Source: Deltaproteobacteria bacterium (lineage in GTDB: Bacteria; Desulfobacterota; Desulfobacteria; Desulfobacterales; Desulfatirhabdiaceae). Taken from it: 64,000 nt of DNA. The notes beneath the pieces were generated by a model, which did not search any database, was not told the origin of the DNA, and saw only the letters and a list, made by a program, of their open reading frames with translations. The position numbers were made by a program, and so were the translations under genes. The stretch covers positions 1,047-65,046 of the forward strand of contig JBAXVB010000001.1 of the NCBI GenBank assembly GCA_037129415.1, read 5' to 3'. Below are positions 1 through 15,415 of this stretch, piece by piece (the stretch's first letter is position 1; each line of letters begins with the position of its first letter).

Positions 1-286
1 TCCATGGAAAATTATCAATTTTTAAAATAGATTCCCATTTTTCATGAGCTTCAAGATTATCTAAGTAAATAGAACGCCATTCTTTGTACTTAGGTATTAA
101 TATTTTTGGATCAATCATAAAATCAATATTGCCAATATTCTCTGCTCTCCATGATCCTATCCATTTTTCAAGATCATTCTCACTTAAATCTTCCCAGAAT
201 GATAAAGGATATGTCTGCAATTCATCCCATAAAATGGGATCAAGCGATGCCAATTCTCGTGTTTGCTCCTCATAATTTCTGTCCAT
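1..286 (-). CDS. hypothetical protein, N-terminal part (runs off left edge)
   Basis: Open frame from ATG (comp. 284-286) to the window edge: MDRNYEEQTRELASLDPILWDELQTYPLSFWEDLSENDLEKWIGSWRAENIGNIDFMIDPK... It is absent from the ORF track because there is no stop inside the window. It overlaps ORF 184..444 in another frame. Confidence 0.35.
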   Translation of the reverse strand, partial: MDRNYEEQTRELASLDPILWDELQTYPLSFWEDLSENDLEKWIGSWRAENIGNIDFMIDPKILIPKYKEWRSIYLDNLEAHEKWESILKIDNFPW

Positions 287-444
287 ATTTGCAATGATAT
301 GGCGAGACGCATTCCATATGGTGATAACTTTACTTTATGTTCTTTATTATGAGGCAGGAGGCCCTTTTTTACATATTCAAATAGATCCATTTCAAGAATT
401 TTCCAGCGTTCCAGTAACTCTTTCCCTGAAAACCATCCATACAT
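184..444 (-). CDS. hypothetical small protein; its N-terminal ~35 aa look HTH-like and it may be the 5' part of a frameshifted gene continued by 1..286
   Basis: ORF-track 86 aa. 'GKELLERWKILEMDLFEYVKKGLLPH' looks like a DNA-binding helix pair. The C-terminal half looks non-protein-like and overlaps the better-looking frame of 1..286. Confidence 0.3.
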   Translation of the reverse strand: MYGWFSGKELLERWKILEMDLFEYVKKGLLPHNKEHKVKLSPYGMRLAISLQIWTEIMRSKHENWHRLIPFYGMNCRHILYHSGKI

Positions 445-615
445 ATTTCACCCCCCTATATCATTGCTTTTTTATTTGATCCATTGGTTATTGTTTGAAG
501 CATGCATATCCGCACGGTGATTTTATTCTATGCAATATTGGCTTTAATAACAAATAGTTAACCCTAAAATCTGATCAAAAATACTCATAACATACTGGAA
601 TACTTAACAAAAACG

Positions 616-641
616 AACATATTCAATTTATTGAATATGTT
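616..641. repeat. 26-bp palindrome (aacatattcaat tt attgaatatgtt)
   Basis: Perfect 12-bp arms read directly in the sequence. It lies in the intergenic region upstream of the minus-strand gene starting at 444. Confidence 0.7.
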
Positions 642-907
642 TAATTTCAGACAGTTATGTCGTAGAACAAAATCACCGTGTGCATATCCGGTTGACACAG
701 GTTGATAATTTGGGGTATCGTTATGATGGTGCGTATCACCCGAATAGAATCGGTAAGATAAATGTACCTTTCGAAGGCGCTCGGATACATACGGATTCTG
801 ATGAATCAGATACACCTATGTTAACATTGTTTCAAGAATATTTTATTATTTCAGGATGCAGATATTACTGGAAGGTTGGAAATAGGGTTGGAAATCATTT
901 TTAAGGA

Positions 908-943
908 ACGAAAAAAGGGTCACGTTTTTCAACGTAACCCTTT
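908..943 (-). terminator. rho-independent terminator that originally followed tRNA-Glu
   Basis: Minus strand reads AAAGGGTTACG-ttgaaaaa-CGTGACCCTTT followed by a U-run. It lies immediately 3' of the displaced tRNA-Glu 3' fragment (955-1000). Confidence 0.6.
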
Positions 944-954
944 GTTATCATTGG

Positions 955-1000
955 TGGTGGTCCCAGCGGGGATCGAACCCGCGTTTCCGGCGTGAGAGGC
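955..1000. repeat. distal att repeat: 46-bp copy of the tRNA-Glu 3' end
   Basis: tggtggtcccagcggggatcgaacccgcgtttccggcgtgagaggc is identical to 31997-32042. Identity stops inside the anticodon stem. Confidence 0.9.
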
Positions 1001-1050
1001 TGAGGCTGAGCGTATTCCACCTATATTTACCGCACATTAGAACCCTCGAA

Positions 1051-1088
1051 AGCCGTTTAGAGCCGTCAAAAGCCGTCTAAAAAGCCGT
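1051..1088 (+). promoter_or_regulatory. four phased AGCCGT(C/T) direct repeats, candidate arm-type recombinase/Xis binding sites
   Basis: agccgt occurs at 1051, 1061, 1071 and 1083 (10-12 bp phasing). The same motif occurs twice at the other island end (31931, 31943). Confidence 0.4.
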
Positions 1089-1223
1089 CAATCCACCCAT
1101 ACCAGGAGAGCATCCTGTCTCATTTCACACCCCCACCACATCCAGTGTTTTTCGATAAAAGACGAGGTCAGAATAGGGCAGTTTATAAAGGTTATGAACT
1201 GGAACAGTGTTCTCGCATAACAT

Positions 1224-1251
1224 ATATAATAGTATATATATACTATTATAT
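1224..1251. repeat. perfect 28-bp AT-only-rich palindrome
   Basis: atataatagtatat|atatactattatat read directly in the sequence. It lies ~230 bp inside the island end. Confidence 0.8.
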
Positions 1252-1628
1252 CGTTATCAGCATTGCTTAACTCAGTTTGCTGAAAATGCTGGTTTGAAAT
1301 TCTACGTAACTTTTCATTTTTTTCTCTGATCGGTGGTGACTTTGATTCAATAGATAAAAGACAACCAGATATTATAGTGATGCCTAAAAACTGCAATCGT
1401 TTTTTAACCATCTGATATTAATTGGTATAATTGAAAATCGGTGTTTGCTAAAAACACTAACCAACTGATATAATTGAATTAAACACAGCATTGCAGCTTT
1501 GAGGTGATTAATACAGCTTTTTACCAAAAATATGGGTTGAAATCTTGATAAGATTGATTTATAATAATTTGAGAAGTTTAATGTTTTTGAGTATTTTTAA
1601 ATCCTTGATAACCGAATTTTAATCGGAG

Positions 1629-3239
1629 GTGATATTGGGCATCCGCTATTTAGAGGGAAATAACAAGGACATTCTTATTATTGCCCCGCATGGTTCCTAT
1701 GAAACAAATGAAGGAATAATAAAATACCGAAACGATTTGCGGACAGGCATTATCGCCGAGGAAATACATAACATCCTAGACTGTTTCACCATTATCAACG
1801 ACGCTTACATCAGACCTGATGAGGATAATAACGAAACGGCGAGCCCCAAGGACAAAAGGCTTGACCTATTCAAGGTGAAACAAGCCAAAGAGGTTCCTGG
1901 TTATTTAAAAGCCATACAAGACGCTGTTGATAATCACGATGGTAAGACGCTTGTCATCTGGCTTCACGGAATTTTCGACAAAAACGCCGATAACGAGAAA
2001 ATTGAGCACGTCAAAGCCAAGTTGATGAAAAAGGGCGGCGGTGATTTACACGCGCTTATCGGATATGGTCAGGGGAAACCTTCTAGCTATACCGCCGAAC
2101 AAAAAACTGTTGAAAAAATCCGAGATGAATTAACAAAGCTGGGACTCAGAACGCTTATCACAAGGAAGGATGCTGGAAATTACTGTGGGTGGGACACGGA
2201 CAGGCTCAATCAATGGTTTCTCATCAACAAATATCCGCTTGATAAAGTCCAATCATTTCAGATTGAAATCCGTTATAAGGGCTTCCGTGAAGATGCTGAA
2301 CAATGCCAAAACACCGCCAGAATAATAGCAGGTGCCATTTCAGCGACACTGGAAATGAAGCCTATCGTAATGGAGGGAGCCGTGGAAACTCAACTTGTCG
2401 AGCCAACAATACCAGATGAAAACACGACCGAAGAAACAGTGGTAGCGTTGACCCTTTCCCAGGAAGAGGCGACGGCTTCAAAGGTACCAGCAGAAAACAC
2501 CGCCAAGAAAAGCTTGGACAAGAATGAAGATGATGAAGCAGTGGCAGAAACTGCCTACATATGGTTGACGGACCAGTTTAAAAAGCATATCACTAATTTT
2601 ATGCATGAAGCTGGAAAATATATCATAAAAAACTTTTACAACAACGACCCTATGCTTGCTTTCGCCAAGAACAAAATAAGCGAGCAACCGCCAAGTTTGA
2701 ACCTGCTGATTAAAAAAATACAGCAGTCTTCAAAAAATCCTTCTGAAAGTGCCCCATCCGTAAGCTGGTTCTACAAGGCAGTAAATCTGGCTGCTCACGA
2801 AGCAATTTGTAAACAGATGGGATTGTCAACGTTTACAATCCTCGGACATAGCCACAAACTTCAACTGCTCTATGTGCCAAAACTCAAATCGATTCAGGCA
2901 GATATGTTAGACAAATCCATCACTCCAGCCTTCCAAGAAAAAGAACGTCTTGCTATAATTGCCCATGAGAAGGGGTTCTCAGTTCGTGACTTCAAGAAAT
3001 ACATTGATGGTCAGTACCCAGAGGAAACAATCGATCTGACAGCATTACCGTCAATGGCTGATTTGCAGTCCCTTGGTCCGAAGAAGCTGGAACGCCTGCG
3101 GAAAACCACCCAGAAAAAGATTGAAGACAGCCAGAAGCTGATCGCTGCTTACACCGCCTCTTTAATGGATCTGGATGCCGTACTTGCTGAAATTCACTGC
3201 GCTGCCGCCGAGGGGAAAGATCAGAAAAAGAAGTGTTAA
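1629..3239 (+). CDS. two-domain protein: N-terminal N-formylglutamate-amidohydrolase/PghP(DUF867)-like hydrolase fold plus C-terminal ParB-HTH-like region
   Basis: 536-aa ORF with a GGAGG RBS at 1625-1629 (start GTG 1629 or TTG 1635). N-terminal motifs 'ILIIAPHGSYETNEG', 'LVIWLHG' and 'QIEIRY' are arranged as in FGase/PghP enzymes. An acidic linker follows. The C-terminal 'GHSHKLQLLYVPKL...EKGFSVRDFKKYI' resembles ParB HTH segments. Confidence 0.5.
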   Translation: MILGIRYLEGNNKDILIIAPHGSYETNEGIIKYRNDLRTGIIAEEIHNILDCFTIINDAYIRPDEDNNETASPKDKRLDLFKVKQAKEVPGYLKAIQDAVDNHDGKTLVIWLHGIFDKNADNEKIEHVKAKLMKKGGGDLHALIGYGQGKPSSYTAEQKTVEKIRDELTKLGLRTLITRKDAGNYCGWDTDRLNQWFLINKYPLDKVQSFQIEIRYKGFREDAEQCQNTARIIAGAISATLEMKPIVMEGAVETQLVEPTIPDENTTEETVVALTLSQEEATASKVPAENTAKKSLDKNEDDEAVAETAYIWLTDQFKKHITNFMHEAGKYIIKNFYNNDPMLAFAKNKISEQPPSLNLLIKKIQQSSKNPSESAPSVSWFYKAVNLAAHEAICKQMGLSTFTILGHSHKLQLLYVPKLKSIQADMLDKSITPAFQEKERLAIIAHEKGFSVRDFKKYIDGQYPEETIDLTALPSMADLQSLGPKKLERLRKTTQKKIEDSQKLIAAYTASLMDLDAVLAEIHCAAAEGKDQKKKC

Positions 3240-3777
3240 GCAGCCATTGACAAAGTGGAAGACGGACATGTTGAAAAAATGAAAGTCCACAAACAACTGG
3301 AATGGCACAAGGTTTTGAAATGTAAAATGCGTCCAATTTATGTGACAGATCAACGATAATCAGCGTTACAGCCAATAGTGTGTGTAACAAGCACCCGTAA
3401 ACTGTAACGGTACCGTGACAGTGTAATTACAGTTGACATGAAATTACACCTGAAAGTGTCACAAAATTGCTGATAGTATAATATAGTTATGATTACAGTA
3501 TGATAAAGCAATACATTTTTTCCGTAACAGGAAATCGTCTTTTCCAGTGATTCGGTATGCCGTCATCGAAATAAATTGCTCCAAACTCTTTGAAATGGTA
3601 ATAAATTACAGAAAAAAGGACTCGAAATAATGAACGTTTTATGATACTGGCACTATTATCTGTTCCTTTTTTCTGGTCTCATTTCAGTTTCACTGGTCAA
3701 TTTTGTACACCATCGCTTATAGATGCTCCGATAGCATATACTGTCCATTTCTTTTACTCTTCTTTGTTGTGGATTAA

Positions 3778-6700
3778 ATGACATATAACTCGAACACACT
3801 GAATTCTGTAACCGGCACTTGCAGTAATCCACAATGTAATGCCTCATACGATATAAATGAAGCCCAGGAACAGGTTATACAGAGGGGGCTGGCTCTGGCT
3901 TACTGTGATGATGTCGTATTCCAGGTCATCGAATGCCGTTATCCAGGATGCCGAGGCAAGGTCGTATTTCGCAGCGATACTGCCAGCCCTGCCCTCGACA
4001 TGCGGGGGCTGCTGCTCGTCCCGAATCCAATCATGCCTTGCAATGCGAGAGAGCAGGCGCAAATTTTGAGAAGCTACTATAATTGGCATGATTATCTGAA
4101 GTTCCAAATTGTTACCGCATGGGATGAATCCGCAGTTAGTATCAGCGAATTCATTGACGATAATTATGTTGCCCCATCAAAACTTTCATTCCCGCCCGAA
4201 AACGAATATATTGATGATATCGATGACTTCACGTACGAACCATTTACATTTACGGATTCGTCTATAGATTTTCACGAAGAATTCATATCTGAACCAGAAA
4301 TTCCAGATAACTCTCGGCGTATGTTAACAGAGTATATTTATGCATCTTTGTTTATGTCAGAAGAGAATTTTTATACTTCTTTGGACAAAGAAGAAACCAA
4401 TAGTACAATCATACTGCGACGACTGCTTCCAAACACACTGAAAAACAATAACTTGCTGACCTGTTTGGCACCAAGTAAAATCGACGAAATCTTCTCTCCA
4501 GATTATTCCAGTTCCAATTTATATGGCTGCGGCACCTGGAATTTAACGATAAAACCGAAGCTATGGAAATCCATTTTAGAAGAAGCCGAAGGAAAATCTT
4601 TCGAGGATGCCGTTGTTGAAAAACTCGTATCCATTGGGATCGAGCCTCCAAATCTGTTGGAAATTGCCAGTTCGGTTGGTCAGCAGCTATTGTCTAAATC
4701 ATCACACTCAAGAGATCAACTTTGGGATATAGTATTTGAAAAAGGTTTTGATGAGAACCTTGGGGAATTTTTTAAGAAGGTGTTTCGGTCAATATGTTAT
4801 CCAATATGCACGGAATTTGCCCTTGCAAATCAACGGAAAGAACTGTTGAATTGGGCAAATGAAGTGGAACAGGGCAAAGCCCTATTTGTCGATGCCCCAA
4901 TGGGGCTTGGGAAAACCCATGCAATCGTTGAAGTCCTGGCTCCTGATCCAAATCTGTCTGCGGTCATTTTCATGCCAACCAACATGTTGTGTCAGGAAAT
5001 AATAGAAAACCTTAAATCCAGGATTTGTTTACAATATAAGGACCCTACCCGGAACCTATGGCACGATAGGGAGCAAGTAATAGACAATAACGGCAACCCC
5101 GTATTTGAGGATGATGGCTCATACCTGTACAGATTTAAAAGGACCTTTCTCAATAAAGAAGTTTATTATGCCGATGGAATAAATCCAAAGGAATGCCCCT
5201 ATTTCGATGAATTCGTGAAGCGGTATAAATGTGGTCTGTTCACCAAAATTGATGTGTGCGGTGATTGTGAAAAGTTTTTGTTTGAAAAGACCGATAAAAT
5301 AGCCTGTCGGTTCAGAAGCCACCATTTGCTTGCACCCCTCTCTCGGATTGTGGTTACAACTCACCAGCAATACCGCAATTTCTCTAAACAGTCCTCAATT
5401 TGCAAATGGTTCAAAAATGGTGAAAAAGAAAAAGGTATCGATAGAAGCTTTTTCATTGTGGACGAAGATATTGTCTTTTCGCAGTGCTATGAGCCTACTT
5501 GCCTGGATAAAGAAGGACTAAAGAATTTTATTGCGACCATAACCGATTTCATGGCAAACCCTGAAAATCTTAAAGGCAATCCAGTTCCTGAAACTGCTAT
5601 CAATAACATAGACAGAATACTCGCACAATTTGAAAAATGTGACAAATCATCAGTGGTACCGGCAATCGATCCTGAATTTAAATTACCCAGTCAAATAAAA
5701 AATGTCTGGGAAGAAGTATTCAATACACAAAATGTGGAAGTGCCAGAAATACTTGCTTCACCAGAACCGATAGGAAACTATTTAGAAATTATTGAAAAAG
5801 CAATATGCAAAGGCTTTGCAGTTCAAAACTACGAAGCAAAATTTAACAATTCGGGCAAGATTGAAACCAGGCAGGTCAAAAAAGCATTTCTTCCAAATCC
5901 GAATACCTATGACCTTAAAGAATTGCCTCCGCATGTGTTCTTTGACGGTACGATGCTCAATGAAAAGTTTTTGGCGAACAAACTAAAAAATGTTGAATTC
6001 AAGAAAATCAAAATAACGATCAAACCGATTTGGAATATAAACGTTCGGCAAAACATATGGACTGACTTGCCGAAATACAAGATTTCCCATGACAGAAAAA
6101 ATGTTGAACAACTTATAAGCGATTTGTTTAGGCAGTTCGGAAACAAAGCTAAATATTTTATTGTGACAAAAAAGGGCATAAGAGAAGAGTATTTGGATGA
6201 GTTTCTGAAGTCAAAGTTTTACAATATAAATTATGTGATTAACCATTATGGCAATTTGCGTGGAGAAAACAGAGCCGAGGATTGTGACATAGGCATCATG
6301 CTCGGAAGCTATGCTCCATCAGATGCGGTTGAAATAACTATGGCTCTGGACTTTATTCAGGACAAACTAACGCCAAACAGAATCATTACCTCAAAAAATA
6401 ATTTATGGACTTTCAGCAATACCAATTTCCGTCGCGTATATAGCGATGACTTTGCGATAGTTGGCGAAATGGCTGATGCATACAGGCATTCAGAGCATCG
6501 CCAGGCATTAGCCAGGACACGATACCTCTTTCATGATGTAGATTTTTTCATCATCTCAAAGGACTTGGTTTCTGACTATGACCCATTTTTGCCCGAGCCG
6601 ATAGATTGCCAATATCGGACTGATTTGTTCGATGGACGATCCCAAAGACCAGAAGCCAAAGAAAAACTCGAAGAGGTTGTGGGAAAGGTCTTTGAGTGGC

Positions 6701-6879
6701 TGAAAACGCACGATACAGTCACGGCAGCGATGATTTTCGAAAAATACGCGATAAGAAGACAGACAGTCGGCAATAAGCTGAAAGAAATGTATGCCAATGG
6801 GCTATTAGAGTTGGAGAAAGGGAAAAAGACAACTTATAGGCTACCCGCTACGGATGGAAATGGACAGGATAGCCTATAG
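3778..6879 (+). CDS. Zn-ribbon + SF2 helicase of XPD/DinG (Rad3) type with Cys cluster + C-terminal winged helix
   Basis: 1033 aa. The N-terminus carries CxxC...CxxC (CSNPQC...CRYPGC). Walker A is 'FVDAPMGLGKTH' and motif Ia is 'FMPTNML'. Five Cys (CPYF, KCG, CGDC, ACRF) lie between Ia and II. 'IVVTTHQQY' is followed by 'FIVDEDI' (motif II). 'HRQALARTRY' is motif VI-like. The C-terminus 'RRQTVGNKLKEMYANGLLELEKGKKTTYRL' is wHTH-like. Confidence 0.65.
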   Translation: MTYNSNTLNSVTGTCSNPQCNASYDINEAQEQVIQRGLALAYCDDVVFQVIECRYPGCRGKVVFRSDTASPALDMRGLLLVPNPIMPCNAREQAQILRSYYNWHDYLKFQIVTAWDESAVSISEFIDDNYVAPSKLSFPPENEYIDDIDDFTYEPFTFTDSSIDFHEEFISEPEIPDNSRRMLTEYIYASLFMSEENFYTSLDKEETNSTIILRRLLPNTLKNNNLLTCLAPSKIDEIFSPDYSSSNLYGCGTWNLTIKPKLWKSILEEAEGKSFEDAVVEKLVSIGIEPPNLLEIASSVGQQLLSKSSHSRDQLWDIVFEKGFDENLGEFFKKVFRSICYPICTEFALANQRKELLNWANEVEQGKALFVDAPMGLGKTHAIVEVLAPDPNLSAVIFMPTNMLCQEIIENLKSRICLQYKDPTRNLWHDREQVIDNNGNPVFEDDGSYLYRFKRTFLNKEVYYADGINPKECPYFDEFVKRYKCGLFTKIDVCGDCEKFLFEKTDKIACRFRSHHLLAPLSRIVVTTHQQYRNFSKQSSICKWFKNGEKEKGIDRSFFIVDEDIVFSQCYEPTCLDKEGLKNFIATITDFMANPENLKGNPVPETAINNIDRILAQFEKCDKSSVVPAIDPEFKLPSQIKNVWEEVFNTQNVEVPEILASPEPIGNYLEIIEKAICKGFAVQNYEAKFNNSGKIETRQVKKAFLPNPNTYDLKELPPHVFFDGTMLNEKFLANKLKNVEFKKIKITIKPIWNINVRQNIWTDLPKYKISHDRKNVEQLISDLFRQFGNKAKYFIVTKKGIREEYLDEFLKSKFYNINYVINHYGNLRGENRAEDCDIGIMLGSYAPSDAVEITMALDFIQDKLTPNRIITSKNNLWTFSNTNFRRVYSDDFAIVGEMADAYRHSEHRQALARTRYLFHDVDFFIISKDLVSDYDPFLPEPIDCQYRTDLFDGRSQRPEAKEKLEEVVGKVFEWLKTHDTVTAAMIFEKYAIRRQTVGNKLKEMYANGLLELEKGKKTTYRLPATDGNGQDSL

Positions 6880-7102
6880 GGTGACTATATAGGGTATGGT
6901 GTCCATATTTATTTTTGGGCATCGGCAGAAATTGGAGATTACACTTTGAAAGCCATTTTATGTGGCATCAAACACAGTATCTGTCGCATGAAATAGCAGT
7001 AAAAGAGCTGTAATGACAACAAAAGACATCAAAAAGCCTGACCAGTAAAATGGTTGGACTTTTCTTTTTTCTGGTTGCTACAACTTCATACCGCACAGCA
7101 TT

Positions 7103-7231
7103 TCATCGAGATTTTTCCAGGACGAACTTGGCGACCTCTTTGTAAAACTCTTTGGAATGGTGTTTGTGTTTGATGTGAGCCAATTCGTGAACGATGATCT
7201 GGTTCCTGGTTGATACTTCGAATTCTTGGAC
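7103..7231 (-). pseudogene. remnant of a DUF45/YgjP-type (M48-like) metallohydrolase
   Basis: A stop-to-stop fragment with no start codon translates as VQEFEVSTRNQIIVHELAHIKHKHHSKEFYKEVAKFVLEKSR*. It contains the family's HELxH..H.HSxxF signature only. Confidence 0.5.
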
Positions 7232-7245
7232 TTAATCTGGATTTT

Positions 7246-7443
7246 TTATTTCGTTAGTTCCTTCAGTATCTTATGAATCCATGTAAAAACAGAGTCATCA
7301 GCAGCTTCAAATTCTGCTTCTAATTCTGGGTCCAGGATTATCATGCAGCTATCACAACAAACCCTGTCAACGTTGTTTTCTTCATCACGATCATAATTTA
7401 TTGCACCAGTAATTGTTTGCCTACATATATCGCACCTATCCAT
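7246..7443 (-). CDS. small Cys-rich acidic protein (zinc-ribbon-like)
   Basis: 65 aa with CDIC...CCDSC. It is the last gene of the minus-strand array and is preceded by repeat copy R1. Confidence 0.5.
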   Translation of the reverse strand: MDRCDICRQTITGAINYDRDEENNVDRVCCDSCMIILDPELEAEFEAADDSVFTWIHKILKELTK

Positions 7444-7531
7444 TCTGTTTCTCCTTTCATTTTGGTTGAAAGTTATAAATTGAATATTGTAAAAATAAAT
7501 TAATTTGATCTGCTGAGATTGAATGCCGCTT

Positions 7532-7628
7532 GAATTGACATTTGAGCAATGAACAAAAGTCGTATATGGCTTCTGCCTGATACGGTCTTTAAATGCTTCT
7601 CTACAAGGTTTTTTTCATCGGAATCTAA
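7532..7628. repeat. intergenic repeat element copy R1 (~100 bp)
   Basis: gaattgacatttgagcaatgaacaaaag...ggtctttaaatgcttctctacaaggtttttttcatcggaatctaa aligns along its length with R2 (9420-9525) and R3 (12895-12995). Confidence 0.85.
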
Positions 7629-9370
7629 CCCGCTGTCGCCGATGGTTCAGCAAGGGATATCTTTTCAATAGCTCCTGTTCGCGCTTGCCGTAGAACTCGT
7701 TCACCAATACCTCTTGCTCTTGAAAATATGGCAGTCATTCGGTCGAAGTTGATGTCAAGGCGTTTTAACTCCTTGCTGACTCCATGTATTCCCATCGTTA
7801 GTGTTTGTTCCATATTTGGAATTTGATTCAATGTTGCTGTTATTCTCAAAAATGGAGCTTTTGTTGTCAAGATAATATCTTCCAAATTAGCAAGGGCAGC
7901 TAGGTTATTAGCTAATTGTGTATGAGCTTCTTTGGAGGACGGCTGAAGTCCACTAACCCAATATTCAAGGCTTATCTCAAATCGTTTAAGCGTATTATCG
8001 CATTCCAAATTTGCTTCGGAAACTTTTTTGGCATAGTCAAATAGAAATTCAGCAAAAGTTCGACAAAATAATTGAAGCTTGCGAGCATCTGCAAGGGGAT
8101 TAGCGTAAATCTCCATTAATTTAGCGTTTTCCTCTGAACGCCTTGTACTGATCAATTCGATCCATTTAGTAAGTTGTTGTATAATTTCAGATAGTTTGGC
8201 AAAACCCTTATCCACTTCTACCTTGTGATCCAGCCACCCGAGTTCAGCGAGTTCTTTTGGACCATCTTCTACTTCTTTTTGGTCGCATAGTTGTTTTGTT
8301 AATGCGGGTTCCGTAAAATCTTTATTTACAAAAAGCATTGTCTTATCGATAGCTTCTGCCCGTACTTGCCGTAGAACTTGTTCACCAATACATCTTACTC
8401 TTGAATACATGACTAACGATTGATCGAAGTTGATAGCAAAGTGTCTTAGCGCTTTGCATGTTTCCAGTGTTGCGAGCGTTAGCTTTCGTTCTATTATTGG
8501 CATTTGTTCTAACGTCTCAATCAACCTTAAATTCGTAGCTTTTGCTGTCAATAAAGAATTTTCAACAACAGCAAGGGCAGCTAAGTTATTAGCTAACTTT
8601 GTACGTTGATCTTCGGAGGACGGCACTTGCCCATAAATATATTCAAGGCTTGGTCCTAATCGTTTTATCATTTTATCGTGCTCGAAATTTAATTCGGAAA
8701 CCTTTTTGGCATAGTCAGAATGAGATTCAGCAAAAGCTCGACAAAGCATCTGAGCCTTGCGAGCATCTACAGGATGATTAGCGTGAATCTCCAATAATTT
8801 AGCGTTTAGCTCTGAACATCTTGTACTGATCGAAATAGTCGATTCACTATGTTGTTTCATAATTTCAGTCAGTTTTGCTTGCCCATTATCAATTTCTACC
8901 TTGTGATCCCAAAACCCAAATTCAGTGTGTTCTTTTGTATCATCAGAAATTTCTTTTGGGTCACCTATATGTTTTGTTAATGCTGATTCCGTAAAATCTT
9001 TAATTGGGCTGCCTAACGGGATCTGATTTTTATAATCTGGTGTTGGTTCTGGTTCTGGTTCTTTATTTATCAATGTGCCGCAATGTGAACAGTATTTTGA
9101 TTCATCAGGAATCTGTTTTCCACAATTTGAACAGTACAATGTAGAATTTATTCCTTCCCTTTTATCAAGCTTTTTCCTCTCAGATGCTTCATCAGCGGCT
9201 TTAAACGCTTCATCTGCTTTTTGTTTTTCGTCAACCTCTCCTGAATTCTTATTTATGGAAAACATAATATCGCAATTCTTACATTTTACATAAGCTCCAG
9301 CTTCAGGAATTTTTTTGTCATCAACGTTGTCGGCAGTATTGCAATTCGGACAAAGAATTCTCATCTTCAT
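7625..9370 (-). CDS. MJ0042-type zinc-ribbon protein with second zinc ribbon and an internally duplicated ~220-aa all-alpha domain
   Basis: 581 aa. The N-terminus is 'MRILCPNCNTADNVDDKKIPEAGAYVKCKNCDIMFSI' and the second ribbon is 'CSNCGKQIPDESKYCSHCG'. Residues ~124-349 and ~350-569 are clear paralogous repeats (KDFTE(S/P)ALTK...LANNLAALA...INFD...). No TM segment is seen. Confidence 0.7.
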   Translation of the reverse strand: MKMRILCPNCNTADNVDDKKIPEAGAYVKCKNCDIMFSINKNSGEVDEKQKADEAFKAADEASERKKLDKREGINSTLYCSNCGKQIPDESKYCSHCGTLINKEPEPEPTPDYKNQIPLGSPIKDFTESALTKHIGDPKEISDDTKEHTEFGFWDHKVEIDNGQAKLTEIMKQHSESTISISTRCSELNAKLLEIHANHPVDARKAQMLCRAFAESHSDYAKKVSELNFEHDKMIKRLGPSLEYIYGQVPSSEDQRTKLANNLAALAVVENSLLTAKATNLRLIETLEQMPIIERKLTLATLETCKALRHFAINFDQSLVMYSRVRCIGEQVLRQVRAEAIDKTMLFVNKDFTEPALTKQLCDQKEVEDGPKELAELGWLDHKVEVDKGFAKLSEIIQQLTKWIELISTRRSEENAKLMEIYANPLADARKLQLFCRTFAEFLFDYAKKVSEANLECDNTLKRFEISLEYWVSGLQPSSKEAHTQLANNLAALANLEDIILTTKAPFLRITATLNQIPNMEQTLTMGIHGVSKELKRLDINFDRMTAIFSRARGIGERVLRQARTGAIEKISLAEPSATAG

Positions 9371-9419
9371 TTCCTTTGTAATTCGAGTAATGATCGAATA
9401 GATTAACAGAACACCGTTT

Positions 9420-9525
9420 GAATTGACATTTGGGCAATGAACAAAAAATCGTATGTTTTATATGGGTTCAGGCTGATATGGTCTTAAAACGTTTCTCTGC
9501 AAGGCTTCTGTTCATCAGAATCTAA
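9420..9525. repeat. intergenic repeat element copy R2
   Basis: gaattgacatttgggcaatgaacaaaaaatcg...gctgatatggtcttaaaacgtttctctgcaaggcttctgttcatcagaatctaa. The terminal imperfect inverted repeat is ATGAACA/TGTTCAT. Confidence 0.85.
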
Positions 9526-9573
9526 TCTGTTTCATAATCTCTAAGCAATTCTGATGCTTTTTCGAAAGGAAAA

Positions 9574-10524
9574 CTATTTCATTAAATTGCACTCATTTAA
9601 AGTATTTATTGCCTTTAAAAGCAAAATTGGCTTTGCTTTTTTATAATATTCTGAAGCTTGACTCAAATGATTTATGCCTGTCATAGCTCCCTTATCTCTA
9701 TCATTCCACATTTGTCTTAATGGGTTTTCAAGTAATTCTACTGAATCTTCAATAGCTTCATAATATAATTTTGAATTCCAGTTCAAATCATCATAATACC
9801 ATTTATCCCTTATGTTTTTATAAATGTTATAGACAAGTTCAAGTTTGGCTTTGTTTGGTGAATTGAGAAGATTTAAGTTATATTTTGCATCACGTAAGGT
9901 TTCGTCAAATACAAGAATTGTAACTCCTGTTTCCAGATAGGATTCAATTTTTTTCAAAGATTTCCATGCGGCAACATATTCCGCACTATATTTCTGAGAA
10001 ATAAAAAAGTGATATATGCCAAACAATAAACCGATTGATATGGTAACTGCTAACGCCGTATATTTTAAAGTCTTTTTGTTTTTATCAAGAATTTCCTCTG
10101 CCTTTTGTTTTCCATCAGCGGTATTTAATGATTCCTCAGCCTTCTTCAATGCTTCTTTTAGCCTCAATACTTCCTCAGCCTTTGATTCTTCATGAATCTT
10201 AGGTTCTTCTTCAGCCTTGAACTCTTCTACTGTTTTTGGTTCTTCCAGAATCTTTTTCTTTTTCAGATTCTCTTCATAAATTCTGTAATAAATCCCGCAA
10301 TATGGGCATTCTAAATCATTTGAATTCCTGTTACGGGAGCATTTAGGACATTTTTCTTCAGTCCTTAATTCATTGTGAATTATCGGCTTTTCCTCCGCTT
10401 CCAGAGTATCCTTTTTTATGAAAAATTTGGTTTCGCATTTGCATTTTATATTAGCTCCTGCATCAGGGATTTTTGAATCATCAACTTGATAAACTTTTTT
10501 ACAATCAGGACATTGGATTTTCAT
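9574..10524 (-). CDS. MJ0042-type double zinc-ribbon, single-pass membrane protein
   Basis: 316 aa. It has 'MKIQCPDCKKVYQVDDSKIPDAGANIKCKC', then 'CPKCSRNRNSNDLECPYCGIYYRIYEE', then an E/K-rich coiled coil, then a TM 'ALAVTISIGLLFGIYHFFI' and a C-terminal domain. Confidence 0.7.
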   Translation of the reverse strand: MKIQCPDCKKVYQVDDSKIPDAGANIKCKCETKFFIKKDTLEAEEKPIIHNELRTEEKCPKCSRNRNSNDLECPYCGIYYRIYEENLKKKKILEEPKTVEEFKAEEEPKIHEESKAEEVLRLKEALKKAEESLNTADGKQKAEEILDKNKKTLKYTALAVTISIGLLFGIYHFFISQKYSAEYVAAWKSLKKIESYLETGVTILVFDETLRDAKYNLNLLNSPNKAKLELVYNIYKNIRDKWYYDDLNWNSKLYYEAIEDSVELLENPLRQMWNDRDKGAMTGINHLSQASEYYKKAKPILLLKAINTLNECNLMK

Positions 10525-10677
10525 TTTCTTCCTTTGGAATCCGATTGAAATAGGAATTCAAATATTTGTTTACTGAATTATGTAGGTACAAGATCAATTG
10601 GTTTTGCTGGGATTGAACGCCGTTTGTAATGATGTTCTTGTCTGACTTGTTTGAGTTCATTTTCTTGATCTATGCAA

Positions 10678-11379
10678 TCACATTGAAATTCTGACTTTCT
10701 TGCGGGCATTGCCTACTCCCCATTCCTCAATCAACAAGATGCCATTTGACGAAGATTTTGCATCAAAAACAACATAAGTTTTAAGGGTGCTTCCAGGTTC
10801 AAATATTGTTGAACTATTATCATCATATCCAATCTGGTATTTTGCATAAACACTCATTGATGATTGCGGATACTGAGTACCATTTGATAAAATCGTCATC
10901 CTGCCATAGTATCTGGGTTTGTTTGAAATATTCTTCAATTGAAGCTCAACAACAATGAATGTGCCATCTGACGGCTTCTGAGGATTTGACTCGGAACCCA
11001 AGGAAGAAAATCTTCTTACATTAGTAATCTTCCATTCAAAACCATCATGATTGAATGTCTGATATTGACTAAGAATCTCTTCTTCAGCTTCTTTTATTCG
11101 CCTTTGATCTTCTTCTGCTGCATTTTTCTCTTCTGCAACTTTTGCTCTTTTCTCTTCATTCGCTTGAATTCGAGAATCTGATTCCTCCCGCATTGAATTT
11201 ATATACCCTGGTGATTCACTGAAGGAGTTGATTCTCTCTTTAAATTCACACTTTGCATCAGGAGGAGGGGAGTCAGTAAATATTGTTTTCCCGCTACTGG
11301 TTACGCATTTGTAATATTCAGCATCAGAAACAGTTGATAGGGATATAATAACGCAAAGTGTTAAAACTATTCGTTTCAT
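10678..11379 (-). CDS. secreted protein, DUF4124-like N-terminus + DUF4352-like beta-sandwich C-terminus
   Basis: 233 aa. The signal peptide is MKRIVLTLCVIISLSTVSDA. 'YYKCVTSSGKTIFTDSPPP' is a DUF4124-type motif. The C-terminus has 'FIVVELQLKNISNKP...' (DUF4352-like). Confidence 0.6.
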   Translation of the reverse strand: MKRIVLTLCVIISLSTVSDAEYYKCVTSSGKTIFTDSPPPDAKCEFKERINSFSESPGYINSMREESDSRIQANEEKRAKVAEEKNAAEEDQRRIKEAEEEILSQYQTFNHDGFEWKITNVRRFSSLGSESNPQKPSDGTFIVVELQLKNISNKPRYYGRMTILSNGTQYPQSSMSVYAKYQIGYDDNSSTIFEPGSTLKTYVVFDAKSSSNGILLIEEWGVGNARKKVRISM

Positions 11380-11577
11380 TATGGCTCCCGTATTATTGGT
11401 TTGGAAAATGAGTTCTGCTGGGATTGAATTGTTAGCGGAATGCTTTTGTAATTGTCGTTTGATTAATTCTATTCATTGTTATCAACTAAAACTACTCCGA
11501 CATAAATGATATTCCGTCCAGATTACGGTGATCATGTTTAACTCACGCTCCTGATGCTCTGGTGCAACTCCTGCCCT

Positions 11578-12729
11578 TCATTTCGATTGTTTATTTGTTA
11601 GTGCATTTATTGCTTTTAAATCATAAGCATTTTTCTCATCATCGGTCATTGGTGAAATTGTATTTTCGTCTCGATTATCCTGCTCTTTGGTACTTTTGAC
11701 AGTGTCAGTTTGCGGTTGATTGATTTCCCGAATCTCTTTTACGCTATTCAAATTGACGTTAAATTTACCGTCATTATTGGATATATGAATAACGTTATCC
11801 TGTTTCTGATAAGAAGTAGCAAACAATATCTTACCGCTGTTTAATACTATTTCATATTTATGAGGAAGATCGTTTGCCGTATTTTTCGGAATAGGATTTG
11901 GTTCAGTTTCATCTTGAATCGTATTTTGTGAATTATTATTGAGTGTAGATTTTTCATTATATTTTGAAAACAGTACAGTATTATCTGCTTTCAGAACATT
12001 GAAATCCGTTTTGATCTGGCATTCTATAATTCCTGATCTGGTATTAAATGTGTTGTAGTAACTGGGAATATCCATATAAATTGTTTGAGATGATTTATGA
12101 AGTTTTTTAATAAGTTTAGTAATTTGACTTCCCTTGATAGGTTTTGTTAGTGAACCGTTGTTCTCGTAAAGCGAACAATAACATGTAACTGACCATCCTT
12201 CCCAATGGATATTAGAATACAATATTGAAAAACTGAATGATTTATCCTTTTCGCTGGTTGTTGATAACTGAATCTGATCAACCCTTTTCAAATCACCTTT
12301 TTTCTGCATAATGCCAGAAAAATATTCTTCATTCCTATTACCAATGTGCTGCAAACCAGACACACTGAATTCGTAATTTGATGGTTCATTGCAAATTTTC
12401 AATCGTTTTGAAAAAGAATGCCTGTTGTTACTCTTGTAAGACGGCTCGATAATATTGATGTGTATTCTTTCTCGCCATAATTCATTATCTGAAAAACCGT
12501 GGAGATATATGATAATAGCAACATTTTCAAACGTAAATTGGGAATTATTGATAATTTCGCCATTCAGATAACAATCGCTATATTTTTGAATTGGCGGATA
12601 ATATGATAAATAACTGAAAGAGAAAATATCGTCAATTTTTGTGGTGAATGCTACGGCAGGGCTGCAAAAAAATATACAAAAGAAGGAAACAATAATTGAA
12701 AAAAGAACACTGATAAATATGGTTCTCAT
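11578..12729 (-). CDS. exported hypothetical protein (shares leader and signal peptide with 13859..15262)
   Basis: 383 aa. The N-terminus 'MRTIFISVLFSIIVSFFCIFFCSPAVA' is a signal peptide. No recognisable domain. Confidence 0.6.
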   Translation of the reverse strand: MRTIFISVLFSIIVSFFCIFFCSPAVAFTTKIDDIFSFSYLSYYPPIQKYSDCYLNGEIINNSQFTFENVAIIIYLHGFSDNELWRERIHINIIEPSYKSNNRHSFSKRLKICNEPSNYEFSVSGLQHIGNRNEEYFSGIMQKKGDLKRVDQIQLSTTSEKDKSFSFSILYSNIHWEGWSVTCYCSLYENNGSLTKPIKGSQITKLIKKLHKSSQTIYMDIPSYYNTFNTRSGIIECQIKTDFNVLKADNTVLFSKYNEKSTLNNNSQNTIQDETEPNPIPKNTANDLPHKYEIVLNSGKILFATSYQKQDNVIHISNNDGKFNVNLNSVKEIREINQPQTDTVKSTKEQDNRDENTISPMTDDEKNAYDLKAINALTNKQSK

Positions 12730-12894
12730 AAGAAATCCCTATTTGTTCACTTCATAAAGGACAAAATTCTGTATCGGATGATCAGCGTTTTGAGTTTAAA
12801 AATAATTTCTTTTCAAAAAGGACGGTTATTGTTGTCAATACAAAAATCAAAATTTCTTCAATTTTATCTGACTGGATCGATATAATGAATCCTG

Positions 12895-12995
12895 GAATTT
12901 GAACAATGAACAAAAAAGGTGACGGTTTTATATGGTTTCTGGCTGATATGGTCTTAAAACGCTTTTCTGCGAGGCTTCTTTTCATCAGAAGCTAA
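12895..12995. repeat. intergenic repeat element copy R3
   Basis: ggaatttgaacaatgaacaaaaaaggtgacggttttatatggtttctggctgatatggtcttaaaacgcttttctgcgaggcttcttttcatcagaagctaa. Confidence 0.85.
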
Positions 12996-13005
12996 TTTAT
13001 TGTGT

Positions 13006-13818
13006 CTATTTAATCGTATTTAAGACTTTTGCCGCCATCTCTTTGGCTTTTTCATCGTTATACGCATCAATTTTTTTCATGATAAAAAATAACTCAATTA
13101 AAGCTATAAAGCACGGAATGAAAGTCCAAATAAACAGGGCATAAATAACACCTAACCCAACCTTCCTCATGTAAAAATGATGTGCGCCGAACCCTCCAAG
13201 AAATAAATTAAGCAAAAACCCAGTGGTACGATTCAATCGAACTTTGTTCATCTCAGATTGAAACACCATCTTTTGAGAATCATTCATATCCCTCATCAAA
13301 ATGAGTTCAGTGTAATCCCTTTGTTTCGCTTTTTCACTTGCTTTTTCACTTGCTTTTTTTCGAATCTCATTATTCTCTTTAATATCCCTATTCGATTTTT
13401 CAATTGCTGCTTCCCATTTCGGCTTAAAATCCCCATACGCTTTTTCAATTGCTGGTTTCCATTTCAGCTTAAAATCCCTGTACACTTTTTCAATTGCTGC
13501 TTCCCATTTCATCTTAAAATCCCTATACTCTTTTTCATTTGTTGCTTCCCAATTAAAAGTTTCCTGAAATTTTGGTTCTTTTTCTTTTTTTGTATCAAGA
13601 TTATCTTTATATTTTTCGTAAATAATTCCACATTTTGAGCATTCTAAATCATTTGTTTTCCGATTATGTGAACACTTAGGACAAATCCCTGAACTCTTAT
13701 TTATTGAAAACAAAATATTGCAATTCGTACATTTTACAAAAATCCCAGCTTCAGGAATTTTAGAATCATCAAATTGATAAACTTTTTTGCATTCAGGATT
13801 CGGACATTGGGTTTTCAT
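13006..13818 (-). CDS. MJ0042-type double zinc-ribbon protein with C-terminal TM2 domain
   Basis: 270 aa. It has 'MKTQCPNPECKKVYQFDDSKIPEAGIFVKCTNCNILFSI' and 'CPKCSHNRKTNDLECSKCGIIYEKYKD'. W(E/K)(A/P)AIEK.Y.DFK repeats follow. TM2 signature: 'LFLGGFGAHHFYMRKVGLGVIYALFIW'. Confidence 0.75.
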   Translation of the reverse strand: MKTQCPNPECKKVYQFDDSKIPEAGIFVKCTNCNILFSINKSSGICPKCSHNRKTNDLECSKCGIIYEKYKDNLDTKKEKEPKFQETFNWEATNEKEYRDFKMKWEAAIEKVYRDFKLKWKPAIEKAYGDFKPKWEAAIEKSNRDIKENNEIRKKASEKASEKAKQRDYTELILMRDMNDSQKMVFQSEMNKVRLNRTTGFLLNLFLGGFGAHHFYMRKVGLGVIYALFIWTFIPCFIALIELFFIMKKIDAYNDEKAKEMAAKVLNTIK

Positions 13819-13858
13819 CTTTCATTTCCTTGGAAATCCGATTGAAAGAAATTCAAAA

Positions 13859-15262
13859 TTAAGCGGATTGGTCTTTGTTACAAAACCTGCAAATTTTAGC
13901 TTTTGCCTTTATTGTCTCAGCGCAATAAGGACATTTCTTTGTATCAGATAAATCAGGTGTCTCTATCTTTTGACTGGTGTTCTGCTCGTTTTTTATACGA
14001 TTTGAGATATTAAGTATAACTCCGATAAGCAGAATAATCCCTGAAGCAATGAGAAAATTTTGTTTCTCATTCATTAATCCAATGTTGTGGATTCGATTAC
14101 CGCTTAGAGAAGGTACGCTGGTACCCATAGAAAGGGATACAATCAAGGCAATTATACCTACTGCAATTAATATTCGATCTATTGTCCATCTACTGAAGGA
14201 ATAACTGCCATTCGGCTGCGCATTAAAAGGCTTTGGTTCCTCATCTTGTTTCGCTTTTTCTCTTGCTTTATTTCGCATCTCGTTATTCTCTTTAAAATCC
14301 CTATAAGCTTTTTCAATTGCTGGTTTCCATTTCTCCTTAAAATCCCTATACACTTTTTCACTTGCTGCTTCCCATAAATTTTTATATACGGGGAACATAA
14401 TACCGCAATTCTTGCATTTTACATAAGCTCCTCCACTTGGGATTATTTTTTCATCAATGTCAAAAATATTTTTGCAATTTGGACAAGAATTATCAGGATA
14501 AAAACTCTTTTGATTTGTTGAAGCCATTTTAAATTTAAGTGCAACAATCTTCAAATAGGATTTTATTTTTATGATTGTTATTAAATAATACTTTCGACAA
14601 ATGAAAAATACGATTGCAAGTCCTATTACGATTGCAAGTCCTATTATGATTGTAATGAGCTTTTTCACTATAAGCTCATTCTGCTTTTTCTTAATTTCTT
14701 CCTGTTTTTTATTTTTTTCTATCTCATTCTGTAATTTTAAATTTTCTTCTTTTTCTCTCCTAAGCTTTTCATCATACGTTTTCTGTATCCTTAATGTTTC
14801 TTCCTGCTTTTTAATACTATCTTTTTCTACCTCATTCTGTAATCTTATCGTTTCTTGTCGTTTTTTAAACCATTCCTTTTCATCATACATCTTCTGCAAT
14901 CTTAAAGTTTCTACCTTCTTTATAATTCTTTCCTCTTCCTCTTTTTGCAATCTTAAAGTTTCTTCATCCTGCTTTTTAATCTTTTCATCTTCCTCTTTTT
15001 TTAGTCTTAACTTTTTTTCTTGTTTTTCTTGGTTTTCTTTATTTTTTTTGGGTTCATGAGCATTCTTGACAGGTTCAGATTTTTCGATTGTATTATCTGG
15101 GATTGATTTCTGATTATTATTTTTTTGTTTTTCTATTTGGCGGTATTCAAATTCAGAAATAATATTCCCGTCAGCATTGTAATATGTTGTTTCTGCAACT
15201 GCAAAAGATACGCAAAGGAAGGAAACAATAATTGAAAGAACACTGATAAATATGGTTCTCAT
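13859..15262 (-). CDS. multi-pass membrane protein: signal/TM + coiled-coil repeats + internal MJ0042-type zinc ribbon + C-terminal zinc ribbon
   Basis: 467 aa. The N-terminus is 'MRTIFISVLSIIVSFLCVSFAVA', followed by ETLRLQK-type repeats and TM helices. The internal ribbon is 'CPNCKNIFDIDEKIIPSGGAYVKCKNCGIMFPV', then 'KVYRDFKEKWKPAIEKAYRDFK' as in 13006..13818. The C-terminal ribbon is 'CPYCAETIKAKAKICRFC'. Confidence 0.7.
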   Translation of the reverse strand: MRTIFISVLSIIVSFLCVSFAVAETTYYNADGNIISEFEYRQIEKQKNNNQKSIPDNTIEKSEPVKNAHEPKKNKENQEKQEKKLRLKKEEDEKIKKQDEETLRLQKEEEERIIKKVETLRLQKMYDEKEWFKKRQETIRLQNEVEKDSIKKQEETLRIQKTYDEKLRREKEENLKLQNEIEKNKKQEEIKKKQNELIVKKLITIIIGLAIVIGLAIVFFICRKYYLITIIKIKSYLKIVALKFKMASTNQKSFYPDNSCPNCKNIFDIDEKIIPSGGAYVKCKNCGIMFPVYKNLWEAASEKVYRDFKEKWKPAIEKAYRDFKENNEMRNKAREKAKQDEEPKPFNAQPNGSYSFSRWTIDRILIAVGIIALIVSLSMGTSVPSLSGNRIHNIGLMNEKQNFLIASGIILLIGVILNISNRIKNEQNTSQKIETPDLSDTKKCPYCAETIKAKAKICRFCNKDQSA

Positions 15263-15341
15263 AAGAAATCCCTATTTGTTCACTTCATGAAGGACAAAAT
15301 TCTTTTATCGGATGAATCGGCATTTTGAATCAATAAGAATT

Positions 15342-15380
15342 AATGAATCCTGGAATTTGAGCAACGAGCAAAAAAGTGAG
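15342..15380. repeat. partial copy (left ~40 bp) of the intergenic repeat element
   Basis: aatgaatcctggaatttgagcaacgagcaaaaaagtgag matches the left flank and start of R3. A still shorter trace lies at 16536-16555. Confidence 0.6.
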
Positions 15381-15415
15381 GGAATTAAGACAAAACTATA
15401 TTGTAACACATAACG

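Follow-up and report, generated by a model that had tools for sequence, protein, structure and literature searches.

An XPD/DinG-fold helicase and a hydrolase-like protein as candidate parts of a replication or DNA-processing module in a tRNA-integrated island of a Desulfobacterales genome

The 64-kb stretch of DNA analyzed here, hereafter called the window (contig JBAXVB010000001.1), comes from a Desulfobacterales-type metagenome-assembled genome labeled ‘Deltaproteobacteria bacterium’ and harbors a mobile island of about 31 kb. The first sizeable genes inside this island lie on the same strand and encode a hydrolase-like protein of 536 amino acids (aa) (gene 1; 1629-3239, plus strand) and a protein of 1033 aa (gene 2; 3778-6879, plus strand), which is annotated by NCBI only as a ‘DEAD/DEAH box helicase’. 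The original prediction for this region, made from the sequence alone, placed both open reading frames (ORFs) correctly in position and length and took them for a candidate two-gene defense system. We regard them instead as separate modular parts of the replication or DNA-processing module of the element and not as an immune system, a plausible reading for which the balance is about even. It is favored as the most economical one because of several lines of evidence taken together, including a slot shared with primase-associated helicases of the family PF27228, fusions of relatives to primase and radical-SAM domains, and the links of gene 1 to such genes. Gene 2 itself is read most economically as a functional counterpart of a primase-associated helicase.

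The translation of gene 2 comprises a zinc ribbon, a helical N-terminal region, a superfamily 2 (SF2) helicase of the XPD/DinG fold with an arch-like insertion, and a winged helix-turn-helix (wHTH) domain. Conservation was taken from an alignment of 33 homologues. In motif I (Walker A, DAPMGLGKT, aa 372-380, nucleotides 4891-4917, plus strand; DAPMGLGKTH up to aa 381) the residues G376, G378, and K379 of the GLGKT core are invariant, as are F559, D562, and E563 of motif II (Walker B, FIVDEDI with the core DEDI, aa 559-565, 5452-5472, plus strand). The SF2 core further includes FMPT as motif Ia, FDGT at aa 722-725, and motif VI with Q909, R913, and R915, of which the glutamine and the arginines do not vary within the family; VVTTHQQY is located at aa 525-532. 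A cysteine cluster of the iron-sulfur (Fe-S) type (5194-5307, plus strand) is placed after motif Ia (aa 397-401) and before motif II. The five cysteines noted earlier are all present, namely C473 (CPYF), C485 (KCG), C494 and C497 (CGDC), and C510 (ACRF), but C485 is not conserved and the number of ligand cysteines is thus four rather than five, with C473, C494, C497, and C510 being invariant. The N-terminal ribbon (aa 13-80, 3814-4017, plus strand) was also found and is beta-rich in the structure model, but its spacing is Cx4C...Cx4C (C15/C20 and C53/C58) and not CxxC as had been claimed; C53 and C58 are invariant, and C15 and C20 are at least 90% conserved. The C-terminal wHTH (aa 958-1025, 6649-6852, plus strand) shows three helices and a wing in the model and has weak profile matches to Pfam TrmB (E 0.022) as well as to Z-alpha and MarR-type chains (E 0.003-0.3).

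An AlphaFold2 (AF2) model of gene 2 reached a predicted local distance difference test score (pLDDT) of 81 and a predicted template modeling score (pTM) of 0.73. The best Foldseek matches of this model were DinG, S. aureus DinG, CasDinG, yeast Rad3, and archaeal XPD, with E values from 1e-13 to 1e-8, among them the structures of E. coli DinG (6fws), F. magna DinG (9kqh), and archaeal XPD (3crw/2vl7). Other SF2 helicases scored at least four orders of magnitude weaker. The two RecA-like domains match DinG/XPD, a mixed alpha/beta insertion of about 150 aa (aa 566-716), which may correspond to the arch domain, is found at the matching position of the model, and whole-chain alignments with DinG/XPD extend over 660-880 columns. 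The order of elements is also that of the XPD/Rad3/DinG helicases, with Walker A, motif Ia, the four cysteines, a DExx-type motif II, the long putative arch insertion, a motif III-like FDGT, and motif VI with glutamine and arginines. Because of the structure matches and the four invariant cysteines, gene 2 is called an XPD/DinG-fold helicase, probably with a 4Fe-4S cluster as predicted from sequence and model. Both this type of fold and the winged helix had been foreseen, and they are borne out by the Foldseek matches, the model, and the weak TrmB, MarR, and Z-alpha profiles.

Sequence-based searches set gene 2 apart from these helicases. In Pfam, it matches DEAD (E 5.6e-6, aa 361-417) and ResIII (E 0.009), but in contrast to XPD/Rad3/DinG proteins neither DEAD_2 nor Helicase_C_2 at E ≤ 1, and NCBIfam gave no match. 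PHROGs was covered as well, and nothing beyond weak, partial matches emerged from these libraries. Sequence and profile comparisons with PDB chains yielded solely a match of the Walker A region to the helicase domain of reverse gyrase and the matches of the wHTH. Further differences are the additional N-terminal region of about 350 aa including the ribbon, the C-terminal wHTH, a motif II reading DEDI instead of DEAH, and the location on mobile elements rather than among housekeeping repair genes. A 2025 review on DinG-like helicases lists no subgroup with a zinc ribbon or a wHTH and thus none with the architecture of gene 2. Among 1.84 billion representative proteins, a profile of the gene 2 family finds 264 sequences at E ≤ 1e-3, and canonical DinG/XPD proteins stay out of its reach. 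At 1e-30, 101 sequences are left, many of which are fragments. Searches of PLSDB plasmids, INPHARED phages, and IMG/VR detected no homologues of gene 1 or gene 2, the one exception being an uncultured jumbo phage to which the N-domain matched weakly. By sequence comparison, gene 2 founds a small and isolated clade of XPD/DinG-like helicases, encountered so far only in integrative elements of Desulfobacterota-type genomes and on environmental metagenome contigs.

The type IV-A helicase CasDinG (8rfj_K) resembles gene 2 in being a DinG-fold protein on mobile elements (Foldseek E 4.7e-9). Unlike for CasDinG, there is neither an array of clustered regularly interspaced short palindromic repeats (CRISPR) nor a Csf gene in the 64-kb window, the former as the original prediction had stated, and the PADLOC model typeIV_DinG matches merely at E 0.018. 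Among 149 neighbors, no Cas families were found besides PD-(D/E)XK recombination nucleases of the ‘Cas4-like’ type. A study on CasDinG (PMC10450177) describes a vestigial FeS domain without a cluster in that protein, whereas the four cysteines of gene 2 are invariant.

Evidence for an exchange of gene 2 comes from a sister element (loci L013/L014), which possesses its own attachment (att) site with a tRNA fragment at about 8682-8733. Next to the att site, window 952-1570 is 88% identical at the nucleotide (nt) level to L013 8682-9292. Window 2208-3680 corresponds to L013 9980-11451 with 96% nt identity, and the intergenic part alone (L013 11011-11451, 441 nt) with 96.8%. On the other side of gene 2, a right flank of 135 nt (6932-7066), which ends in a terminator-like hairpin (7038-7057), is 90% identical to L013 13675-13813, and the Rad52/PD-(D/E)XK region is also common to both elements, with 87-92% nt identity overall, 89% aa identity for the PD-(D/E)XK protein, and 93% for the C-terminus of Rad52. 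Between the same flanks, the sister element encodes a member of PF27228 of 668 aa, which combines a CxxC...CxxC ribbon at the N-terminus with a GKSSSGKS P-loop and a wHTH-like C-terminus. Owing to this replacement between conserved flanks, gene 2 is placed in an exchangeable slot, and the homology breakpoints between the window and L013 delimit the swappable cassette (3681-6931, plus strand). The earlier description of gene 2 as cargo is supported, and it behaves as swappable cargo, the slot being situated next to a decayed YgjP-like gene. Both occupants of the slot have an N-terminal zinc ribbon, an NTPase motor, and a wHTH-like C-terminal end, and fusions to DnaG and radical-SAM domains are found in both families. 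No homology between the two was found, however (hhalign probability 0.3%). The motor of gene 2 has the SF2 XPD fold and is expected to be monomeric, in contrast to the ring-forming P-loop motor of PF27228. Gene 1 is also affected by exchange: its first part of about 190 codons (window 1629-2207), which encodes the hydrolase domain, cannot be aligned with L013 at the DNA level and is present there as a diverged allele, and from about residue 194 onward the C-terminal two-thirds are about 96% nt identical. This pattern points to recombination within gene 1.

The nature of the helicase that shares the slot with gene 2 is apparent from its relatives. Of the 120 best relatives listed for the 668-aa protein, a DnaG-type primase (CHC2 zinc finger, DNAG_N, and Toprim; PF01807, PF08275, and PF13155) forms part of more than 60, one is fused to domains of an archaeo-eukaryotic primase (AEP), and three to Radical_SAM or DUF1848. 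Within the gene 2 family, the protein P0169 combines a DnaG primase with a gene-2-type helicase and two wHTH domains (hhalign probability 100%, E 3.8e-42). It keeps the cysteine pattern of gene 2, and its primase domain has relatives in the PF27228 fusions. A Radical_SAM domain is found at the C-terminus of three other family members (P0120, P0126, and P0133). At L011/L012, a gene 2 homologue lies 0.9 kb from a primase-helicase with Toprim_3 and DUF3987 domains. The fusion in P0169 and this neighbor support by analogy the view that gene 2 may work like a primase-helicase rather than being a member of such a family, since unlike these proteins gene 2 of the window has no primase domain. Analogous replication proteins of mobile elements are the primase-helicases T7 gp4 and P4 alpha.

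Gene 1 is linked to the same functions. A Pfam search with 32 of its relatives found Radical_SAM in 19, DUF1848 and SPL (spore photoproduct lyase) in four each, and DUF488 and a clamp-loader-like DNA_pol3_delta2/AAA domain in one each, so that 23 of the 32 contain the C-terminal domain of gene 1 in fusion with Radical_SAM or DUF1848. At L004 and L012, the relative of gene 1 immediately follows a DnaG-like primase, and at L004, L005/6, and L012 it immediately precedes an HU gene, its stop codon overlapping the next start codon. P0297 joins a PF27228 helicase and a gene-1-type hydrolase domain in one protein (hhalign 99.6%, E 7e-24). A separate observation is that radical-SAM (SPL-like) or DUF1848 fusions recur on three unrelated parts of helicase modules, namely the gene 2 family (P0120/P0126/P0133), PF27228 (P0271/P0280/P0293), and the 23 relatives of gene 1.

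The view of the two genes as a co-inherited system was examined with gene 2 loci collected by exact look-up and by scanning genomes and metagenomes. Gene 1 does not adjoin gene 2 at any of the 17 independent gene 2 loci, counting those that extend 1.9 kb or more upstream, and gene 2 adjoins gene 1 at none of five independent gene 1 loci. The pair is kept only in L016, a copy of the same island (98%/95% identical), and a single contig (L011/L012) holds both genes at a distance of 8.3 kb. Even homologues as close as 70% identity (gene 1) or 54% identity (gene 2) have other neighbors, and in the window the genes are separated by a gap of 539 nt containing a terminator-like hairpin. An obligate two-gene system, for defense or another purpose, is therefore very improbable. 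It would agree with the adjacent position on one strand in the window and in L016, and P0297 demonstrates that a partnership between a gene-1-type hydrolase and a helicase does exist, although the helicase there belongs to another family. These points stand against the lack of adjacency, the early change of neighbors, the gap, and the mosaic structure of gene 1 with its exchanged N-terminal domain. As missing co-occurrence had been named in advance as evidence against it, the two-gene part of the original prediction is largely refuted. There is some support, from this one fusion, for a looser link in which a gene-1-type hydrolase acts with whichever helicase fills the next slot. ORF clustering at 30 loci revealed no gene that regularly adjoins gene 2. 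A small ORF downstream of gene 2 in L001, L017, and L019 was considered as a partner and discarded, being absent from the window.

Gene 1 encodes a metal-hydrolase N-terminal domain, a disordered linker, and an all-alpha C-terminal domain ending in a long helix. The true start is probably TTG at 1635, 6 nt past a GGAGG sequence, rather than GTG at 1629. The AF2 model (pLDDT 83) is confident for aa 1-245, disordered for aa 247-298, and all-alpha beyond. The N-terminal domain (aa 1-245, 1629-2363, plus strand) adopts a fold like that of N-formylglutamate amidohydrolase (FGase), M14, and amidase_3 zinc hydrolases. Its closest structure in Foldseek is 2q7s (E 9e-7, TM score normalized to the target 0.55), then 2odf, followed by REP34/M14 and CwlD, and further matches include 4oko, 4b6z, and 7rag. 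This is in line with the FGase/PghP-like fold proposed initially, and the motifs quoted for it were located in the translation (IIAPHGSYE, aa 17-25; WLHG, aa 111-114; QIEIRY, aa 211-216). A total of 44 homologues of gene 1 were found, and in an alignment of the family H21, D36, T39, H113, G114, Q211, and E213 are invariant, including the His/Asp/His and Glu residues typical of the fold. H21, D36, and H113 are likely metal ligands and E213 the likely base, and because of their invariance the domain is likely, as predicted from sequence, to be an active metallo-amidohydrolase. In contrast to genuine FGase and PghP proteins, no Pfam family including FGase (PF05013) and PghP (PF05908) matches gene 1 at E ≤ 1, and comparisons with NCBIfam, PHROGs, PADLOC, and PDB chains remained without a match.

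The C-terminal domain of gene 1 (aa 298-536, 2520-3236, plus strand), delimited by a coverage map of relatives, is an unclassified helical domain which is also found without the hydrolase domain. It has no Pfam relative, its profile has no match among PDB sequences at E ≤ 10, and a search of BFVD structures aimed at it returned matches to the N-terminal domain alone. The original prediction had compared this segment with the HTH of ParB, presumably on account of the motif LGHSHKLxLLxVPKLK, which we take to recall GxSRSxVxNxLRLLxLP of ParB proteins. This lead could not be verified, as no ParB, KorB, or HTH_ParB family of Pfam matches gene 1 or its 32 relatives, a ParB/Srx N-terminal domain is absent, and the C-domain profile finds no PDB sequence. 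A role in small-molecule catabolism is unlikely, since the hydrolase shares its polypeptide with a probably DNA-associated helical domain and has helicases and primases as neighbors or fusion partners.

In the favored reading, gene 2 would act as an ATP-driven translocase on single-stranded DNA, probably with 5′-to-3′ polarity. The putative 4Fe-4S cluster at C473/C494/C497/C510 and the arch-like insertion would form a pore for strand separation, the zinc ribbon and the helical N-terminal region may recruit partners or DNA, and the winged helix may anchor the protein to duplex DNA. Because it is seated where primase-associated (initiator-type) helicases normally sit, gene 2 would unwind the DNA of the excised element itself for priming, replication, or recombination. 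It is the sole helicase or NTPase among the island ORFs scanned, which contain no other candidate replication protein. Gene 1 would be a metal-dependent amidohydrolase with a probably DNA-associated helical domain, serving as an exchangeable accessory of the helicase/primase module. A more specific version, which we put forward tentatively and with some doubt, is that an XPD/DinG-fold Fe-S SF2 helicase serves as the primase-coupled or initiator helicase of integrative elements. In this version, which would amount to a novel type of primase-helicase, a probably monomeric motor of the repair type would replace the usual ring helicase, and an exchangeable amidohydrolase/radical-SAM accessory would process DNA or a partner protein at the origin.

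Several observations weigh against a role in replication or DNA processing. To our knowledge, no helicase of the XPD/DinG type serves as a replicative or initiator helicase, and the 2025 DinG review contains no such subgroup. No primase was found in the island of the window, and just one of 179 sequences of the gene 2 family represents the primase fusion. The existence of a close sister element without gene 2 implies that the gene is dispensable for this type of element, and since L003 and L011/L012 also possess a complete primase-helicase, gene 2 is not the sole replicative helicase there. Its placement with respect to backbone genes varies, being integrase-distal in the window, whereas in L031 the recombinase is 2.5 kb away. 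BLAST detects no relation between the radical-SAM domains fused to the gene 2 family and those fused to gene 1 or PF27228. An iteron-like array at 28506-28607, away from gene 2, could be the real origin. Finally, the neighbors of gene 2 homologues are heterogeneous and often defense-like, including CapH/CapP-like regulators.

The last point leads to the main rival, in which gene 2 alone is single-gene defense or exclusion cargo, a DNA-sensing XPD-like helicase directed against incoming phage or plasmid DNA, and gene 1 is unrelated cargo. We consider this unlikely. DinG-like helicases do act in immunity, as exemplified by CasDinG and discussed in the 2025 review, and it would suit a defense gene that one sister element has gene 2 and the other lacks it, while the flanks of the slot are conserved. 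About 200 nt downstream of gene 2 lies a remnant of a YgjP-like (DUF45) gene (7081-7198, minus strand), comprising its last 41 or so codons and detected by tblastn with aa 191-231 of the YgjP-like protein of L005 (81% identity in blastn). Its intact counterpart in L005/L006 stands next to a type I restriction-modification (R-M) operon, which suggests that an R-M system was once present in the slot of the window. Moreover, a type I R-M system directly follows the gene 2 homologue of L008, a gene for a DUF4011/AAA_11/restriction endonuclease protein is adjacent in L021 and one for NERD-UvrD in L025, PIN, NOV_C, Mrr_N, and EVE domains are nearby in L002, and AbiE, Fic, TIR, and TOTE in L015. Such genes may, however, merely mirror the cargo-rich character of mobile regions. 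A search of PADLOC-DB 2.0 gave no match for gene 1, and for gene 2 a match to HamB1 (E 3.5e-6) restricted to the Walker A region (aa 311-416), all others having E ≥ 1e-3; the absence of a match to a named defense system had been anticipated correctly. Gene 2 also lacks a nuclease or other effector domain and has no conserved partner gene in the 17 loci, and the alternation with a primase-associated helicase in the slot, like the DnaG fusion within the family, weighs against defense. With DnaG-type primases, primase-associated helicases, HU, and radical-SAM domains as the strongest associations of both families, a defense role as originally assumed is not indicated.

A further alternative, quite unlikely in our estimation, places both proteins in DNA repair, damage tolerance, or establishment after transfer (anti-defense) instead of replication, with gene 2 as an XPD/DinG-like repair helicase alongside lesion- or modification-processing enzymes (the hydrolase and SPL-like radical SAM) and the Rad52/PD-(D/E)XK recombination genes. 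The XPD/DinG fold itself would fit this role, the radical-SAM fusions score against spore-photoproduct-lyase models, and the elements carry Rad52, PD-(D/E)XK, RadC, and DUF932 genes, to which L015 adds SRAP, NucS, and a DnaQ-like exonuclease. No lesion-recognition partners accompany the genes, however, and neither family was found in PLSDB plasmids, in whose leading regions anti-defense genes are common. The primase fusions and the slot shared with primase-associated helicases favor priming or replication over repair.

The non-coding sequences around gene 2 are conserved as well. The left flank of the helicase slot (3240-3680) contains repeats of TTACAG and TGTAATTACA at about 3368-3500 and a hairpin followed by a T-run at 3609-3675 (-17.2 kcal/mol), and window 3477-3784 is 86% identical to L001 9699-10007. 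No Rfam family was found in the conserved non-coding flank. TTACAG, CTGTAAC, and TGTAATTACA motifs occur at 3368-3500 and at 3606, and similar ones upstream of gene 2 homologues in L001, L008, L015, and L020. They are not specific to gene 2, because they are kept ahead of the alternative helicase too. A AATTACAG motif is present in 7 of 19 upstream regions of gene 2 homologues, compared with 1 of 19 downstream regions.

A palindrome of 47 nt (ATGGACAGGATAGCCTATAG...TATAGGGTATGGTGTCCAT, 6860-6906) overlaps the stop codon of gene 2 and is followed by a T-run (RNA fold -23.7 kcal/mol, z -3.4). The palindrome of about 45 nt reads TGGACA(C)...TATAG...TATGGTGTCCA(T), also written TGGACAC...TATGGTGTCCAT. 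The element is found no more than 30 nt from the stop codon in the window, L001, L002, L009, L019, L020, L022, and L033, and as a variant in L017; it is found upstream of the start codon in L008, L026, and L020. In detail, the palindromes are located at L001 12966, L002 12841, L008 9927 and 22403, L009 3241, L019 2582, and L020 2998 and 6334. A degenerate upstream copy occurs in the window and in L001; that of the window (3705-3750), recognized by comparison with L001, L008, and L020, ends 27 nt before the ATG and has no stable fold. In total, 14 matches to the palindrome were counted, compared with 1.8 in shuffled sequence. Although it resembles a terminator, the sequence itself and not the structure alone is conserved, at protein identities of 35-50%. 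It could be a terminator inherited with the cassette, an operator of the wHTH, or a recombination or cassette boundary.

The island is bounded by an exact direct repeat of 46 nt (955-1000 and 31997-32042; repeat D17), which is the 3′ part of tRNA-Glu(ctc). The tRNA-Glu gene itself (31997-32071, minus strand) adjoins a tyrosine integrase gene (30768-31904, plus strand; Pfam Phage_integrase, E 3e-18), and the copy at 955-1000 is the distal att site and left boundary. Repeat and integrase confirm, as predicted, that genes 1 and 2 occupy the distal end of an island integrated at a tRNA gene. Within the island the G+C content is 0.32-0.46, and beyond its borders it is mostly 0.44-0.52. The space from att to gene 1 holds a small ORF of 107 aa (1088-1411, minus strand) without a Pfam match, which is kept in the sister element (L013 8850-9131, L014 150-431). 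In L013, the tRNA 3′-fragment at 8682-8733 parts the sister island from other mobile genes at 1-8680, including those for a Zn_Ribbon_Prim and an HTH_24 protein, which suggests two tandem islands at one tRNA site. The remaining genes of the island include RadC, Rad52, a PD-(D/E)XK nuclease, DUF932, Bro-N, an HNH nuclease, an HTH-methylase, and a block of zinc-ribbon paralogues.

At least five ORFs (65-581 aa) make up this block (7246-16504, minus strand), a family of paralogous cargo genes whose products have N-termini of the MJ0042 zinc-ribbon type; one of them has a TM2 domain and one (7625-9370) a large internal duplication. Their upstream and 5′ sequences are nearly identical, for instance 12702-12770 and 15235-15303 (99%). 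The Rad52-like protein (20167-21054) has a Gly/Asn/Ser-rich region of low complexity in its C-terminal half, derived from degenerate 30-nt tandem repeats (20557-20897). The non-coding iteron-like array near the integrase end (28506-28607) comprises 4.7 copies of a unit of about 21 nt, CGCTGTACAGTGTCTGTGTCC, and is a candidate origin or regulator-binding site. Its GTGTCC repeats were also considered as the cognate site of the gene 2 wHTH, an idea that was dropped because GTGTCC clusters are absent from other gene 2 loci. In L026 (6670-9668), the gene 2 homologue is directly followed by an IrrE/M78-like peptidase and by a protein combining an AAA_18 kinase-like with an adenylosuccinate-synthetase-like domain, an unusual pairing for a mobile element.

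For the interpretation of mobile islands, this case illustrates that a position at the island tip and an odd pairing of domains do not suffice to propose a defense system, and that co-occurrence needs testing. If the replication or DNA-processing reading is true, a repair-type Fe-S helicase has been recruited for the replication or DNA processing of mobile elements in anaerobic sulfate-reducer lineages, which would provide a new setting to study the role of the Fe-S cluster in helicases. As all well-studied primase-helicases that we know of have a ring-forming motor of SF3, SF4, or SF6, the fusion of a DnaG primase with an XPD-like helicase in P0169 would widen the repertoire of replication machines. 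Beyond this, an uncharacterized network of domains around mobile-element helicases emerges, consisting of an FGase-like hydrolase, a new helical domain, SPL-like radical SAM, DUF1848, and HU.

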